Shown here piece by piece: positions 21,388 to 46,950 of a stretch of DNA of 64,000 bases (position 1 is its first letter; each line of letters starts with the position of its first letter). Made by a program: the position numbers and the translations under genes. The notes under the pieces are model-generated. The model worked only from the letters and a program-made list of their open reading frames with translations. It was not told the DNA's origin and made no database searches. Origin of the DNA: a virus (lineage: Duplodnaviria; Heunggongvirae; Uroviricota; Caudoviricetes); IMG/VR virus record IMGVR_UViG_3300037455_000402, positions 10,951 through 74,950 of that record. One strand, 5' to 3'.

Positions 21388-22512
21388 TTAGTCCTCCTTT
21401 ATATTGAAAGCGTGAATAAACTGGTCTGTTCTCATACCTGCAATTGCCTCGTCAAGATGATTGTCGTAGGCTGCAAAGTAGAGAGCTGCATACTGACCCT
21501 TAGCTACATCCTGAGCGAACCACTTACGAGCCATTCTTGCGTCCTGCTCATAAACGTCCTTATTCTCCATCTTCCAAAGCTTAACGTCCTGTACTATCTT
21601 CTCCTTACGTGCATCTACGGTGTCGAGCTGGTGCTTAACGTGGTTAAATACATCAGTATACTCAGGGAAGTAAGATAAGAACTCATAGTGGTCATTTGCA
21701 CGGATTAAGTCTACGATACGCTCCAATGTGATGACACCGTTGTTCTTTGCCTTGTGCATCTGGAAGTAAAGTAAAGTCTTAATCTTAACACGCTCATTGT
21801 ACTGGTCACGAACAACGACACCCTCGTGACCCTCTGGCATATCCTCAACGAGCTTACGGAAACCTGCCTCGTCGTTCATGTAGTAGAACTGAGGATAAGC
21901 TACGCCTAACTTTCCCGCATAGAAAGAGATACGGTCATAGTCTAACTCTGCAAGAGAGTTCATAAAACGAACAGAAAGAAGGTATACCTTAGTCTCAGGA
22001 TAGTCGATGACTACCTTGTTGTAAGGAGATACCAACTCAAAGGTCCAGCAAACGTCCTTTGGGTGATTCTCGAAAGTAGATAAGGGGAGCACAGACTCGA
22101 AAAGCTCACCAAAGTTCTTGTAAGGACCTACGCCAGAAAGCTCAGCCTTGAAAGCATCTATTGTGCCGTTAGTAGAAAGATGCCACTTGCCACGAGCATA
22201 CCATACAGACATTATAGAGCCGTCTATCTTTTCAGACGCAACGGCAGTATCCCAGTCGATATGAGCTGCATAACCCTCGTCGATGTTGAAGAACTTCTTG
22301 AAGGCATAACGAACTACACGGAAATCATTCTGAGAATCGAGAATAAGACCACGAGCCTCCTTGCAGATTTCCTGAGAGAAGTCAGATGCTATTTGATTGT
22401 ACTTGAAAAGAACGAAACCGTCGTCCTCGGAAATCTTTAAGTTATAAGGCTCTGCAGATAAGAGGTCACGCCAATTATCATGAGCCTTAATGAACTCCTG
22501 TATCTTTAACAT
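21388..22512 (-). CDS. RNA ligase, T4 Rnl1-like (covalent nucleotidyltransferase)
   Basis: motif I EKIDGS, motif IV EGVVVRD, motif V KIKT; 374 aa. Confidence 0.65.
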   Translation of the reverse strand: MLKIQEFIKAHDNWRDLLSAEPYNLKISEDDGFVLFKYNQIASDFSQEICKEARGLILDSQNDFRVVRYAFKKFFNIDEGYAAHIDWDTAVASEKIDGSIMSVWYARGKWHLSTNGTIDAFKAELSGVGPYKNFGELFESVLPLSTFENHPKDVCWTFELVSPYNKVVIDYPETKVYLLSVRFMNSLAELDYDRISFYAGKLGVAYPQFYYMNDEAGFRKLVEDMPEGHEGVVVRDQYNERVKIKTLLYFQMHKAKNNGVITLERIVDLIRANDHYEFLSYFPEYTDVFNHVKHQLDTVDARKEKIVQDVKLWKMENKDVYEQDARMARKWFAQDVAKGQYAALYFAAYDNHLDEAIAGMRTDQFIHAFNIKED

Positions 22513-22514
22513 TC

Positions 22515-22763
22515 TTAATCCTCCTTAAAGCCCCAAGCTTCACGCTTTTCGGCATAGATTATACGACCGTCAGAAAGCTCCACGCTTATCTCCTCATCAG
22601 CGATGACTGAATAGTCATACATATCTTTAAATGCCGTCCACTTCTTAGAATCGGGCATTTCATCTTCAGCTATTTTATGAATGAGTTGGCACATTGCGGC
22701 TTCCTTAGATTTATAAACGTCAAAAACGTTTCCATTGTTATCGCTCATAACCCAACATTCCAT
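22515..22763 (-). CDS. hypothetical protein (82 aa)
   Basis: ORF track; stop overlaps Rnl1-like gene start. Confidence 0.5.
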   Translation of the reverse strand: MECWVMSDNNGNVFDVYKSKEAAMCQLIHKIAEDEMPDSKKWTAFKDMYDYSVIADEEISVELSDGRIIYAEKREAWGFKED

Positions 22764-22886
22764 TTTAGCCCTCCATTCTATAGGCTTCCATAAGTTCCTT
22801 CATACGGGTCTGTATGTCTCTTTTATATCTACGCTTACAATCTTCCCTTACGGCAAGATAAAGTTTGATGTACTCAATTAAACTCA

Positions 22887-23117
22887 TTATACTATCTCCT
22901 TAAAATACTTAATATCCATTACTCCGAATAAAGGACCGCCACAGTGATGTATTTTCGTTTCATTAGCTACTGCCGAAAGACGGCTTGCTATCATATCACT
23001 TGTCAGACCATAACCAGAATTATCTTCTTCAATGCCTATCTTTGTAGAATGACCATCTATGGCACCACAGGCTCTACACATATACATTGCAAGAAAAGTT
23101 CTTCTCTGCTTTTTCAT
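22887..23117 (-). CDS. hypothetical protein (76 aa)
   Basis: ORF track. Confidence 0.45.
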   Translation of the reverse strand: MKKQRRTFLAMYMCRACGAIDGHSTKIGIEEDNSGYGLTSDMIASRLSAVANETKIHHCGGPLFGVMDIKYFKEIV

Positions 23118-44739: not shown

Positions 44740-44860
44740 TAGTCATTTACCTCCTCATCATCGTCAGTTGTGAACTCGACCTCAACGTCAATGTTCTCGT
44801 CGCCAAAAGATGGCTTAGTTGCATAATCGTTAGGATTAATATTTGCAGGTGCTCCCATTA

Positions 44861-45970
44861 TTACTTCGCCTCCTCTGTAGGTACTACAGGTGTTACTGGT
44901 GTTGCAGTTGCAGGTGTTACTGGTGTAGGTGCAACAGGTGCAGGTGCAGGTGTTGAAGGAGCTGCACCGAAGATGTTATCAAAGATGTTGCCGAAGCCGC
45001 CGCCTCCCATCATCATCATCATCATCATAGGATTCATACCGTCGTTACCCTTACCGTTAGAACCATTCATCATCTGGCTCATCATCATAACACGCATTAT
45101 CTTGTTCATGCCGTCAGGACCGCTGAGATTATCAGCATTACCGAACATAGATACAATCTTACCGTAGAAGTAAGTGTTACCCATAAACATATGACGCTCA
45201 GGAAGCATCTGCTCTACTGCGCCGTTTTCATAGTTTACGACTGTAAGGATATTAGTGTCCATCTTAAGGACGTACTTCGGCTTACCGTTAGCGAAGATTA
45301 TATCGCCAGCAGCTACTGTGTTTGTAGGAACTACGAAGAACATTTCATCGAAGCCGCTGAATACGAAATTATCGCAGTTGATAAATGTGCCCTGTACCGC
45401 ATTATAGCTCTTATAGCCATTAGAAGTCTTTACAGCTATGCCGCCATCCATAGTAATTTTGCACATACCGTTGCTTATCGGTCCGAACATTCCCTTAAGA
45501 AAATTATTATCCATCATTGTATTACCCTCCATATAATTTTTATCTGTTATTGTGAAACTGAGTATAGATACCCAGCTACCTGCTTCATCAATGACTTCCA
45601 GCTCATCGGGGAAGTCTTCATCAAGATAGGCTATGATTGTCTTTACAACTTCAACAACACTATCTCCATATGGGTCTTTCTTTATAGACGACTGAGTCAC
45701 TACCCACGGCTCGTCGCTACGTCTATATTCAATAAGGGTGCTGTCAATGTGAAACCTATCACCCTTTTTGACACTCTTATCGTTTGGAAAACGATACCAA
45801 TATTGCTTTCCGTGATTACTTGGTGTGCCGTCAGGACGGAGAAAACATACAGAAACGAATGTAGCTTTATTCTTATTTCGTGAGAATCCTAAAGCATCGA
45901 ATACAGTTTCTTCAAACTTTTTATCCCTATCACTATCCCAAGTACAATACGGTGCAAAAGCACCAAACAT
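44861..45970 (-). CDS. hypothetical protein with Met/Gly-rich and Pro/Thr/Val-rich C-terminal tail
   Basis: start set at MFGAFAPYC (GAAGGTG RBS); tail ...NPMMMMMMMGGGGFGNIF...PAPAPVAPTPVTPATATPVTP. Confidence 0.5.
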   Translation of the reverse strand: MFGAFAPYCTWDSDRDKKFEETVFDALGFSRNKNKATFVSVCFLRPDGTPSNHGKQYWYRFPNDKSVKKGDRFHIDSTLIEYRRSDEPWVVTQSSIKKDPYGDSVVEVVKTIIAYLDEDFPDELEVIDEAGSWVSILSFTITDKNYMEGNTMMDNNFLKGMFGPISNGMCKITMDGGIAVKTSNGYKSYNAVQGTFINCDNFVFSGFDEMFFVVPTNTVAAGDIIFANGKPKYVLKMDTNILTVVNYENGAVEQMLPERHMFMGNTYFYGKIVSMFGNADNLSGPDGMNKIMRVMMMSQMMNGSNGKGNDGMNPMMMMMMMGGGGFGNIFDNIFGAAPSTPAPAPVAPTPVTPATATPVTPVVPTEEAK

Positions 45971-46044
45971 ACTTACACCTTCTGGTTCCACTCTCGCTAT
46001 CCTCCTTTTCAAATTTCTCTTTATACGCCTTTTAGGAGGTCTCA

Positions 46045-46950
46045 TTACTTAATGAGACCTCTTGCAAGCTTCATTGAAAGTGAGCCACAAATCTTACCGA
46101 AGTTCTCAATCTGAGCTACAGTCTCGGGCTCCTCCTTTACACAGTCATTGTAAATTGCTCTTGGAAGATTCTTAGCGATTGTACCAAGGTCCTTCTCGTC
46201 CCAGTTCTCTGGAACAATGCCGTCCTCAACGAACTTCTGAATTGCCTTCTCAACTCTTCTTGGAGTTACGATAGTCTCTGCAAGAGCCTCTGCAGCCTGT
46301 CTTGCTGCAATCTTTGCAGGGTCAATGTCCTTCTGAGGCTTTGACTGATGAACCTCAGAGAACTCCTTTGCAACAATCTTTACATATGCAGGAGTACCGC
46401 TGAACTTATTGTCAAGTCTGTCCTGAGACTTAATAACTACACCCTCACCTGTAGGCTCACCGCCCATCTCTGTCTTACCAACAAAAGAGTAAACGTGCTC
46501 CCAAGAGATGAAAGGACCGTCGTAAAATACAGGAACCATCTTAAGACCGCAGAACTCTGCCATCTGCTTGGTCTGCTCCCATGGAATGTACTGCTCAATC
46601 TCAGTATCCCATACGTCGAAAACATAGAACTGCTTCATCTTCTCCTGTGGGTACTTAATAGTGTGCTTAACGAGCCACTCACCGAAGAAAATGTATCTTG
46701 TACCAAGTACACAAGAAATCATAGTAGGGTCAAGTGACTGAACATACTCGTAGAAACCCTGAAGGTTGCTCTCAGGAGTAAGCTCATTTCTTCTTGAAAA
46801 AGCAATAAGCTTACCGTCCTCGCCAACTGCGATTGATGCGTTTGCACCGTCTATCTTCTCTGTAATTGTAATATGCTCTCCCACCTTGAAAGCCTCAGCG
46901 AACTTGTCCTTGAGTCTCTCAATATCAACATACTTTTTCATTAACATCAT
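46045..46950 (-). CDS. RNA ligase, T4 Rnl2-like (nick-sealing family)
   Basis: motif I EKIDGANASI (T4 Rnl2 EKIHGTNFSL), FGEW, YVFDVWDTE, EGVVIK, KIVAKEF align with Rnl2 motifs. Confidence 0.65.
   Translation of the reverse strand: MMLMKKYVDIERLKDKFAEAFKVGEHITITEKIDGANASIAVGEDGKLIAFSRRNELTPESNLQGFYEYVQSLDPTMISCVLGTRYIFFGEWLVKHTIKYPQEKMKQFYVFDVWDTEIEQYIPWEQTKQMAEFCGLKMVPVFYDGPFISWEHVYSFVGKTEMGGEPTGEGVVIKSQDRLDNKFSGTPAYVKIVAKEFSEVHQSKPQKDIDPAKIAARQAAEALAETIVTPRRVEKAIQKFVEDGIVPENWDEKDLGTIAKNLPRAIYNDCVKEEPETVAQIENFGKICGSLSMKLARGLIK

Follow-up and report, generated by a model that had tools for sequence, protein, structure and literature searches.

Bacteria commonly defend themselves against phages by cutting tRNAs, and tRNA repair is the classical answer of the phage, although its mechanism is understood in only a handful of cases, chiefly in T4. 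The question raised by the locus described here is whether an uncultured tailed phage (Caudoviricetes) encodes a repair system of this kind, and which of its genes belong to it. The window, by which we mean the whole stretch of DNA that was analysed, comprises 64,000 nucleotides (positions 10,951 to 74,950 of IMG/VR record IMGVR_UViG_3300037455_000402). A sequence-only reading of it had proposed a complete RNA end-healing and sealing toolkit at 21388-46950, made up of two RNA ligases, a T4-Pnk-like kinase, a P-loop plus HD phosphohydrolase fusion and a calcineurin-like phosphoesterase. We found all five open reading frames (ORFs) exactly where they had been placed, on the minus strand. Four of the five domain calls score above curated Pfam cut-offs and are therefore not due to chance, while the kinase is not T4-Pnk-like and leaves the set; on paper, the two ligases and the fusion protein, here called Pnk-HD, suffice for healing and sealing. 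We consider it probable (roughly 0.65) that the window holds, scattered along it, the genes of a T4-like system for repairing RNA breaks. This reading is carried by the enzyme families present, by their intact catalytic motifs and by the recurrent linkage of Pnk-HD to RNA ligase genes, all of which are observed.

A proposed kinase-first healing enzyme and two RNA ligases

Pnk-HD is a protein of 303 residues, encoded at 41715-42626 (minus strand), that joins a 5'-kinase (residues ~1-135) to an HD phosphoesterase (~160-303). Both halves of this fusion score above the Pfam cut-offs, PF13671 (AAA_33) with 70.1 bits (cut-off 27) and PF01966 (HD) with 40.4 bits (cut-off 22). Among NCBIfam models the kinase matches a bacterial Pnkp kinase segment (9e-16) and the HD half is HDIG/CCA-enzyme-like. 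A search of the PDB with the single sequence finds the kinase of Clostridium thermocellum Pnkp (CthPnkp; 6.5e-11), in which GSGKS and SSDFCR align with GSGKS (13-17) and SSDAIR (D31, R34) of the window protein. We take the residue roles of a polynucleotide 5'-kinase (phosphoacceptor Asp and Arg, lid arginines) to be those of CthPnkp.

An exhaustive search of 1.84 billion cluster representatives (50% identity) returned 6,911 relatives of Pnk-HD, at least 572 of them at E<=1e-30; among the matches listed, most are full length at about 300 residues. In 42 homologues (35-51% identity) the kinase residues G15, K16, D31, R34 and R80 and the HD residues H169, H176, H208, D209, H230, H234, H267 and D299 never vary, with R112 and R114 almost constant; both active sites are therefore under selection. 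Of the HD residues, H176, H208-D209, H230/H234, H267 and D299 supply the metal-binding set H...HD...H...H...D of the HD-Pnk family. With a family profile (A3) the kinase half matches CthPnkp at 5e-27, PSTK at ~1e-18, Pnkp1 at 8e-14, T4 Pnk at 7e-12 and mammalian PNKP at ~1e-9, and for the HD half the hit, at 4e-10, is to 3wfo, an A-adding enzyme ('poly A polymerase'), in its HD region. The HD domain of the E. coli CCA-adding enzyme has 2',3'-cyclic phosphodiesterase and phosphatase activity, according to the title of a paper cited in PMC2190708.

The same profile retrieves gp110 of Rhodothermus phage RM378 (hmmsearch E 1.4e-33; HD 1.6e-12, kinase 1.9e-20; hhalign 99%), in which the order is HD (10-159) then kinase (188-337), the reverse of the window protein with its kinase at 1-135 and HD domain at 160-303. 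The HD domain also comes first in the Runella enzyme HD-Pnk (PMC6097658), and in Deinococcus PNKP (PMC1997131). RM378 PNKP is the one enzyme that PMC1997131 reports as having its 3'-phosphatase in the HD domain. The RefSeq name of gp110 (48060-49145), 'probable poly A polymerase', is misleading: the protein consists of an HD domain and a polynucleotide kinase and is presumably the published RM378 PNKP. Judged by these profile matches, Pnk-HD is a permuted, kinase-first form of the HD-Pnk type, both of its domains being homologous to those of the RM378, Runella slithyformis and Deinococcus enzymes. We propose it as the credible RNA end-healing enzyme, the kinase half of which would be the phage's polynucleotide kinase. 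A literature search found no biochemical study of the kinase-then-HD order, and GenBank already labels the homologues in Bacillus phages 'polynucleotide kinase'.

A gene for a 383-residue adenylosuccinate-synthetase-like protein (42697-43848, minus strand) lies between Pnk-HD and an ORF with a von Willebrand factor A (vWA)-like motif. Its product matches PHROG 1211, which bears a PurZ-type name, at 2e-33 and ordinary PurA in the PDB at 3e-8, and falls far under the scores of PurA equivalogs; the adjacency to Pnk-HD is kept in an 81%-identical relative and absent in Bacillus phages. This neighbour prompted us to consider the HD half as a DatZ-like dATPase of a Z-genome (diaminopurine) cluster. 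We did not adopt this as our main reading because the HD profile matches the HD domains of CCA- and A-adding enzymes and RM378 PNKP and no dATPase, because the adjacency is absent in Bacillus phage Thrax2 and Lysinibacillus phage LC76P1, and because what a PDB search finds for the PurA-like protein is ordinary PurA.

The first of the two ligases, encoded at 21388-22512 (minus strand), is an ATP-dependent RNA ligase of the Rnl1 type, with the same length as T4 Rnl1 (374 residues). The profile check suggested for it in advance, PF09511 (RNA_lig_T4_1), gives 52.5 bits (cut-off 28.3), PHROG 562 matches residues 28-356 at 1e-42, and the PDB yields T4 Rnl1 (2c5u/5tt6) at E 8e-9 with an alignment that ends at residue 258. 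The motifs KIDGS, EGVVV and KIKT, noticed earlier in the sequence, begin at residues 95, 230 and 243 and are joined by FELVSP at 158; KIDGS (K95), FELVSP, E230-G231 and K243-x-K245 align with TKEDGS, FEFVAP, EGYV and KIKS of T4. The NCBIfam equivalog TIGR02308 scores 54 bits, against the 242 needed, in an alignment that reaches residue 338, so that the protein is a family member but no close orthologue of the T4 enzyme. T4 Rnl1 owes its tRNA specificity to a C-terminal domain, of which the window protein may have a counterpart. On this evidence from profiles and motifs we describe it as a divergent Rnl1-type RNA ligase.

The second ligase, of 301 residues (46045-46950, minus strand), has an N-terminal nucleotidyltransferase domain and a helical C-terminal domain; it matches PF09414 (RNA_ligase) with 94.9 bits (cut-off 27) and PHROG 548 over residues 2-297 at 1e-58. 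Taken as a single sequence it gives an ambiguous subfamily signal, the Rnl2, DRB0094 and Pab1020 models all scoring about 1e-8 to 1e-9, and its best PDB match is archaeal Rnl3. We therefore cite the result of a profile (A4) of 11 sequences, including homologues from Bacillus, Staphylococcus, Listeria, Lactobacillus and Cellulophaga phages. Its best PDB match is T4 Rnl2 (2hvq; E 2.8e-12, residues 3-283 against 3-315 of 335), and the alignment spans the C-terminal domain too; the matches to Naegleria Rnl5 and archaeal Rnl3 cover the nucleotidyltransferase domain alone. The motifs KIDGAN, FGEW, FYVFDV and EGVVIK start at residues 32, 89, 108 and 169, and EKIDGAN and the other three align with EKIHGTN, FGEF, FYVFDI and EGYVLK of T4 Rnl2 (motifs I, III, IIIa and IV). 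Over the 11 phage homologues K32, E91, D112, E169-G170 and K191 (full-length numbering) are invariant. Because the catalytic lysine comes only 32 residues into the protein, an N-terminal oligonucleotide-binding domain of the Rnl5 type is absent.

Motif V reads VKIVAK where T4 has IKCKNS: K191 is the first lysine, V193 replaces the second and K195 follows two residues on. This K-x-V form places the protein on a divergent branch of Rnl2-like ligases, and as such an Rnl2-type ligase we classify it from its profile and motifs. In an AlphaFold2 model with a predicted local distance difference test score (pLDDT) of 50.5 overall, residues 1-209 are unreliable (shallow alignment, rows 81-98% identical) and residues 210-300 are all-helical at pLDDT ~90. 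Both ligase calls of the sequence-only reading, the latter based on EKIDGAN and EGVVIK, are borne out by their Pfam profiles, with profile A4 favouring T4 Rnl2, and the motif III and IV residues of the latter are present and align with T4. Between this ligase and Pnk-HD two further minus-strand ORFs are kept in relatives. One, of 394 residues (44861-46045), has a tail rich in Met/Gly and in Pro/Thr and starts on the stop codon of the Rnl2-type gene; the other, of 292 residues (43861-44739), carries the vWA-type metal-site motif DVTGSMGS and belongs to PHROG 2971 (unknown function).

Pnk-HD lies 3.4 kb from the Rnl2-type gene. The 81%-identical relative keeps the block of Rnl2, vWA-like, PurA-like, Pnk-HD and Ro-like genes and is too close to be informative. 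Eight informative contexts come from distant phages, two other contigs being too short to judge, and in five of the eight an RNA ligase gene stands beside Pnk-HD or within 5.2 kb of it. In the Tsamsa-like Bacillus phage Thrax2 (Pnk-HD 36% identical) an Rnl1-type gene overlaps Pnk-HD and an Rnl2-type gene follows 2.8 kb downstream; in LC76P1 (31%) an RNA ligase with an oligonucleotide-binding (OB) fold and PF09414, an RlaP gene and Pnk-HD are contiguous in that order; and in three contigs an Rnl1 homologue is found at 0.6 kb (L024, 35%), 1.1 kb (L020, 38%) and 5.2 kb (L019, 41%). Contig L020 also has a homologue (44% identical) of the window's metallophosphoesterase, discussed below, at 2.3 kb from its Pnk-HD gene and 4.4 kb from its Rnl1 gene. 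The linkage of Pnk-HD to RNA ligases thus recurs in distant phages, which is suggestive, although five of eight is no statistical test.

Thrax2 (vB_BanS-Thrax2), other Tsamsa-like Bacillus siphophages and LC76P1 share with the window the same trio of genes at 31-41% identity, the domain order of Pnk-HD and an RlaP gene. Their genes are already labelled 'RNA ligase' and 'polynucleotide kinase' in GenBank, as annotated and not as characterised enzymes. They differ from the window in forming a tight cluster in which Rnl1 overlaps Pnk-HD, whereas the Rnl1 gene here is 19 kb off. The Runella HD-Pnk gene overlaps a ligase gene (PMC6097658), as the Pnk-HD gene of Thrax2 does. The kinase-then-HD family is large, conserved and repeatedly linked to Rnl1, and is predicted to comprise healing enzymes.

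Accessory genes and a proposed repair pathway

Inside or near the span are related genes that the sequence-only reading had not included: RlaP-like, Macro, cREC and Thg1-like. The first two form a cassette with the phosphoesterase gene. The RlaP-like gene (33662-34504, minus strand), first of the three, encodes a Pol-beta nucleotidyltransferase of 280 residues that matches PHROG 388 ('nucleotidyltransferase') at 1.1e-12. Its top Pfam match is RlaP (PF10127) at 15.2 bits, under the cut-off of 23; homologues in LC76P1 and Phass-1 (37-39% identical) score 28.3 and 24.9 bits for RlaP over the same region, and the LC76P1 homologue is the gene located between RNA ligase and Pnk-HD. The Pol-beta motif YGAQ...SDYDY (G35-A36 ... 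D47-x-D49) is present. RlaP extends the 3' ends of damaged RNA by one or two nucleotides, and repaired or over-trimmed tRNA thereby regains aminoacylation (PMC12776372).

The RlaP-like gene overlaps the second gene by 4 nucleotides, and this in turn ends 9 nucleotides before the phosphoesterase gene. The second gene (33183-33665, minus strand) encodes a Poa1p-like Macro domain protein of 160 residues, with PHROG 335 at 7e-34, Pfam Macro at 21.0 bits (just below the cut-off of 22) and, as its best PDB match, yeast ADP-ribose 1''-phosphate phosphatase (6lft, 1.7e-7). Poa1p is the ADP-ribose 1''-phosphate phosphatase of the pathway that disposes of tRNA-splicing by-products.

The third gene (32460-33173, minus strand; 237 residues) is the calcineurin-like phosphoesterase recognized earlier, and it is real: PF00149 (Metallophos) gives 41.1 bits (cut-off 21.5) and PHROG 1649 a match at 6e-24. 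Its dinuclear signature is complete (GDTHG at 8, GD at 39-40, GNHE at 70-73, H170, GHYH at 206-209) and invariant in a four-sequence alignment. A PDB search with the single sequence returned noise alone. With the four-sequence profile (A5) Dbr1, the enzyme that debranches RNA lariats, is the sole significant match (7e-7, residues 3-217), and the nearest solved relative; MPPED2 is marginal, and neither lambda phosphatase nor the CthPnkp phosphatase was matched. The second motif reads MGDAGF, and there is no motif of the GDxVDRG type. By its profile, then, this protein is not of the lambda-phosphatase/CthPnkp type; it may be a phosphodiesterase for RNA ends or 2'-5' bonds. The 81% relative lacks the RlaP-like and Macro genes, so the cassette varies between related phages, and a Macro/phosphoesterase cassette was not seen in the examined stretches of Thrax2-like phages and LC76P1. 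Downstream of the phosphoesterase gene, at 39 nucleotides, lies a gene for an SPFH/Band-7 (HflK/C-like) protein (31539-32420, minus strand).

A further candidate 2',3'-cyclic phosphodiesterase is the 124-residue cREC (cyclic-phosphate-processing receiver) domain protein at 30011-30385 (minus strand; PF20274 cREC_REC, 64.3 bits, cut-off 27, E 1.8e-17). The cREC domain is predicted to open cyclic phosphates and is known only in contexts of RNA repair or of the processing of cyclic ADP-ribose-phosphate (1''-2'' cADPr) (PMC9503650, PMC7824862). The Thg1-like 3'-5' nucleotidyltransferase at 17996-18820 (minus strand; probable start ATG near 18760) matches PF04446 with 105.9 bits (cut-off 29.2) and PHROG 4717 ('tRNA-His guanylyltransferase') at 5.8e-87. 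Its gene adjoins tRNA-Gln (18831-18904) and tRNA-His (19164-19238), the latter 350 nucleotides upstream. The gene for the tRNA-His of the phage already supplies the G at position -1, which faces a C discriminator, so that a repair role or templated addition is as likely for the Thg1-like protein as classical G-1 addition. The tRNA-His gene itself (19164-19239, minus strand) has two mismatches (T-T, C-T) in the middle of the acceptor stem, and its CCA is genomically encoded.

The 492-residue protein at 38803-40281 (minus strand), a candidate Ro-like RNA-binding protein, combines DUF2828 (PF11443, 129.6 bits) with DUF7788 (PF25043, 83.1 bits) and matches PHROG 850 ('RNA-binding protein') at 3.6e-123. 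It had been read as Ro60; RNA binding is supported by PHROGs, but there is no TROVE match, only the two DUF domains. The Y-like RNAs reported with it did not reappear, as no Y-RNA family matched at E<=1 in 37400-41750. KptA/Tpt1, 2H, RtcB and Hen1 did not turn up in a scan of 44 minus-strand ORFs of the window with at least 82 residues (not every ORF) and of three more in which TAG was taken as sense, while 122 kb of the phage's genome lie beyond the window.

For the substrates, the order of steps and an anti-defence purpose we lean on T4 and on comparative work (PMC7824862, PMC9503650). The target would be an RNA break with a 2',3'-cyclic phosphate on one side and a 5'-OH on the other. The HD half of Pnk-HD would open and remove the 3'-terminal phosphate, with cREC and the Dbr1-like metallophosphoesterase as possible helpers or alternative end-cleaners, and the kinase half would phosphorylate the 5'-OH. 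Rnl1 would then seal breaks in single-stranded loops, for example anticodon loops, and the Rnl2-type ligase nicks in duplex regions. Nucleotides lost at the break may be restored by the RlaP-like protein at the 3' end and by the Thg1-like protein at the 5' end, and the Macro domain may clear ADP-ribose-phosphate by-products or adducts. The 43 tRNAs and the transfer-messenger RNA (tmRNA) of the window could provide replacement and rescue in parallel.

Set beside T4, with its Pnkp, Rnl1, Rnl2 and RlaP homologue NrdC.11, the window has ligases homologous to T4 Rnl1 and Rnl2, a healing enzyme in which a kinase domain homologous to that of T4 Pnk precedes a phosphoesterase, and an RlaP-family gene, as T4 has (PMC12776372). 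The differences are that the phosphoesterase of T4 is a DxDxT acyl-phosphatase and that of the window an HD domain, and that the window has, beyond what T4 offers, genes for cREC, Macro, a Dbr1-like metallophosphoesterase, a Thg1-like and a Ro-like protein, together with 43 tRNAs and a tmRNA. The earlier statement that the locus exceeds T4 is only partly fair, since Rnl1, Rnl2 and Pnkp, and a homologue of RlaP, are found in T4 as well (PMC12776372). The bacterial Pnkp-Hen1 and Pnkp1-Rnl6-Hen1 systems provide the closest solved kinase domains (CthPnkp and Pnkp1); they differ in their lambda-phosphatase-type metallophosphoesterase, their in-built or dedicated ligase and their Hen1 methyltransferase, which is missing from the scanned ORFs of the window.

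Jumbo phages carry Rnl1/Rnl2, polynucleotide kinase, HD and calcineurin-like phosphatases, cREC, RlaP, Thg1, Macro, ROT/TROVE and tRNA arrays (PMC7824862), and such combinations have been interpreted as counter-measures of phages to tRNA-cleaving defences (PMC7824862, PMC9503650). The window phage departs from the repertoires of Iyer et al. 2021 (PMC7824862) in its genome of ~186 kb, below the usual jumbo size, and in its apparent use of TAG as sense. Every component family, and the interpretation of the combination, has been described before. The points of difference are the kinase-first Pnk-HD, the cassette, the K-x-V motif V and the number of RNA-end enzymes in a sub-jumbo genome. The locus does not overturn current understanding; what it offers is a short catalogue of candidate parts belonging to an abundant lineage of uncultured phages, with well-defined targets for enzymology, and its three-gene cassette could mark an additional healing step.

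Several observations weigh against a repair system of the T4 kind. The genes assigned to it are dispersed over 29 kb with no single operon, Pnk-HD is 19.2 kb from Rnl1, and three further contigs (Pnk-HD 36-38% identical) show no ligase in the 2-5 kb available. The assignment of a phosphatase to the HD half would extend to Pnk-HD what a single characterised phage enzyme has taught, and in Deinococcus PNKP mutations in the HD domain left phosphatase activity unlowered (PMC1997131). In the Rnl1-type ligase, N115 stands opposite a residue that is lysine in T4 Rnl1, and the label of PHROG 562 recalls that the T4 Rnl1 family also has a role in tail-fibre attachment. In the Rnl2-type ligase, the second lysine of motif V (KxK) is valine in all 11 phage homologues. 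With no KptA/Tpt1 or 2H found among the scanned ORFs of the window, the classical substrate of the Macro domain is left without a visible source.

NAD+ metabolism, RNA biogenesis and DNA ends as alternatives

The fifth gene of the original set, at 34828-35391 (minus strand), encodes a P-loop kinase of 187 residues with a match to PF13521 (AAA_28) of 31.7 bits. PHROGs label it thymidylate-kinase-like, and a PDB search with the single sequence gave no match beyond noise. In a model with pLDDT 88.4, the top 50 Foldseek matches in the PDB are thymidylate, adenylate and deoxynucleoside kinases, and the closest relative is the ribosylnicotinamide kinase domain of NadR. We rejected it as a T4-Pnk-like kinase and exclude it from the repair set, as it has the fold of a nucleoside or nucleoside-monophosphate kinase and there is no polynucleotide kinase among the 50. 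From its model it appears to be a small-molecule kinase, possibly for nicotinamide riboside, a result close in spirit to the deoxynucleoside-monophosphate kinase that the sequence-only reading had itself named as the contrary outcome.

This kinase gene is the last of an overlapping operon (34828-37407, minus strand) with genes for a GNAT acetyltransferase and an NT5C 5'-nucleotidase and two other ORFs, which from its gene content could be a module for salvaging NAD+ or nucleotides. In relatives (L013, L014, L019) PnuC-like (NMN_transporter) ORFs stand nearby. In LC76P1 (L011, 1127-7814) genes resembling phosphoribosyl pyrophosphate (PRPP) synthetase and NAMPT/NAPRTase, named 'hypothetical protein' throughout in GenBank, stand directly upstream of the block of ligase, RlaP and Pnk-HD, so that NAD+ salvage and RNA repair genes are adjacent there.

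These genes bear on the alternative that survives best, in which Rnl1, the Rnl2-type ligase and Pnk-HD are the only genes that repair RNA, and the cassette and the 187-residue kinase serve an anti-defence metabolism of NAD+/ADP-ribose or cyclic nucleotides, in which NAD+ would be salvaged, ADP-ribose adducts removed and immune signals with 2'-5' linkages broken down. We hold this for a possible, if tentative, explanation. The kinase is NadR-like, with PnuC-like ORFs near its orthologue and near another Pnk-HD locus; the nearest solved relative of the phosphoesterase cleaves 2'-5' bonds; Macro domains act on ADP-ribose derivatives (PMC9503650); close relatives do without the RlaP-like and Macro genes, and in them the kinase is one small ORF away from the phosphoesterase; and LC76P1 has its NAMPT-like and PRPP-synthetase-like genes upstream of the repair block. 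Yet the RlaP family acts on RNA 3' ends (PMC12776372), the RlaP homologue of LC76P1 sits between RNA ligase and Pnk-HD, and a phosphoesterase homologue accompanies Pnk-HD and Rnl1 in L020. Both views can hold at once, since the processing of ADP-ribose is itself a branch of RNA repair (PMC9503650).

It is rather doubtful that the repair genes go further and form an integrated system for maintaining the tRNA pool, with the kinase-first Pnk-HD and the cassette as two new healing devices; the cassette would then handle RNA ends beyond the reach of classical healing, being 2'-phosphorylated, 2'-5'-linked or ADP-ribosylated. We find it improbable that the enzymes serve the biogenesis of the phage's own RNAs by maturing, joining or circularising tRNAs, tmRNA or the ROOL RNA and by upkeep of the 5' end of tRNA-His. 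The genes do adjoin a very large RNA island that includes a ROOL RNA of 596 nucleotides, the Thg1-like gene is beside tRNA-His, and for genes with TAG codons the phage relies on suppressor tRNAs of its own. However, the tRNAs detected by ARAGORN and Rfam are ordinary and contiguous and the tmRNA is in one piece, so that they need no ligation, pairs of ligase and Pnk-HD also occur on contigs without a visible RNA island, and a tRNA-His with an encoded G-1 does not obviously need G-1 addition. We think it very unlikely that Pnk-HD and the Rnl2-type ligase work on the ends of DNA or of RNA-DNA hybrids in replication, recombination or repair of the phage genome. In favour of this, Runella HD-Pnk is described as a DNA/RNA end-healing enzyme (PMC6097658), Deinococcus PNKP was investigated for its part in DNA repair (PMC1997131), 'DNA ligase' is the annotation of several phage proteins homologous to the 301-residue ligase, and Thrax2 has a DNA ligase gene between Pnk-HD and the Rnl2-like gene. 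Against it, the ligase profile matches RNA ligases only (T4 Rnl2, Rnl5, Rnl3), the gene that recurs near Pnk-HD is that of Rnl1, a family specific to RNA, and RlaP, cREC and Thg1 are RNA-end enzymes.

The phage, its RNA genes and its genetic code

The window has a G+C content of 39.6% and nearly all of its genes on the minus strand. A megablast search with 15 kb of it against 50,697 phage records gave no match, from which we conclude that there is no close cultured relative. The sequence of the Rnl2-type protein occurs identically on one metagenomic contig of 186,457 bp, and hundreds of versions that are 80-99% identical occur on contigs of 160-193 kb; the window is therefore, on this sequence evidence, part of an abundant uncultured phage lineage with a genome of ~186 kb. 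For some window genes the weaker relatives derive from human faecal samples.

The 'huge tRNA set' noted earlier is confirmed as 43 tRNA genes and one tmRNA in the window (ARAGORN; Rfam). An island at 2774-19238 (minus strand) contains 41 of the tRNA genes, the tmRNA and the ROOL RNA, and two more, tRNA-Leu and tRNA-Gly (40447-40836), lie just upstream of the Ro-like gene. The tmRNA (13302-13652, minus strand) is in one piece and encodes the tag peptide ANDFAFAA. The ROOL RNA (3408-4003, minus strand) matches Rfam RF03087 with 264 bits over model positions 1-574, which is full length, and is flanked by tRNA-Ala on one side and tRNA-Ile on the other. The RNAs of the island are likely clients or substitutes of the repair enzymes. 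Also inside it, adjoining a tRNA-Leu, is a gene for an RNaseH_like protein (PF04308, 142 bits; 15875-16399, minus strand).

TAG terminates only 3 of 58 long minus-strand ORFs, and two tRNAs have the anticodon CUA (13749-13825 and 14270-14344). Reading TAG as sense fuses the fragments at 59448-62492 (minus strand) into an ORF of 1,014 codons with 20 in-frame TAGs and gives an ORF of 498 codons with 13 in-frame TAGs at 62502-63998 (minus strand). In the UvrD-like helicase at 58286-59416 it restores the N-terminal Walker A region, raising the Pfam score from 61.8 to 126.6 bits with a match that begins at profile position 2. The signal concerns 53257-63998 of the window (minus strand). The RNA-repair genes all stop with TAA or TGA and have no in-frame TAG, and are therefore readable in the standard code; we take the window to be the early-type, standard-code part of the phage genome. 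TAG thus appears, from these reading frames, to act as sense in the structural genes and in some genes for replication, which makes the phage dependent on its own suppressor tRNAs, and for this reason protection of the tRNA pool is a sharper question here than in T4. Phass-1, a distant relative in GenBank, is classed in a 'code 15 clade'.

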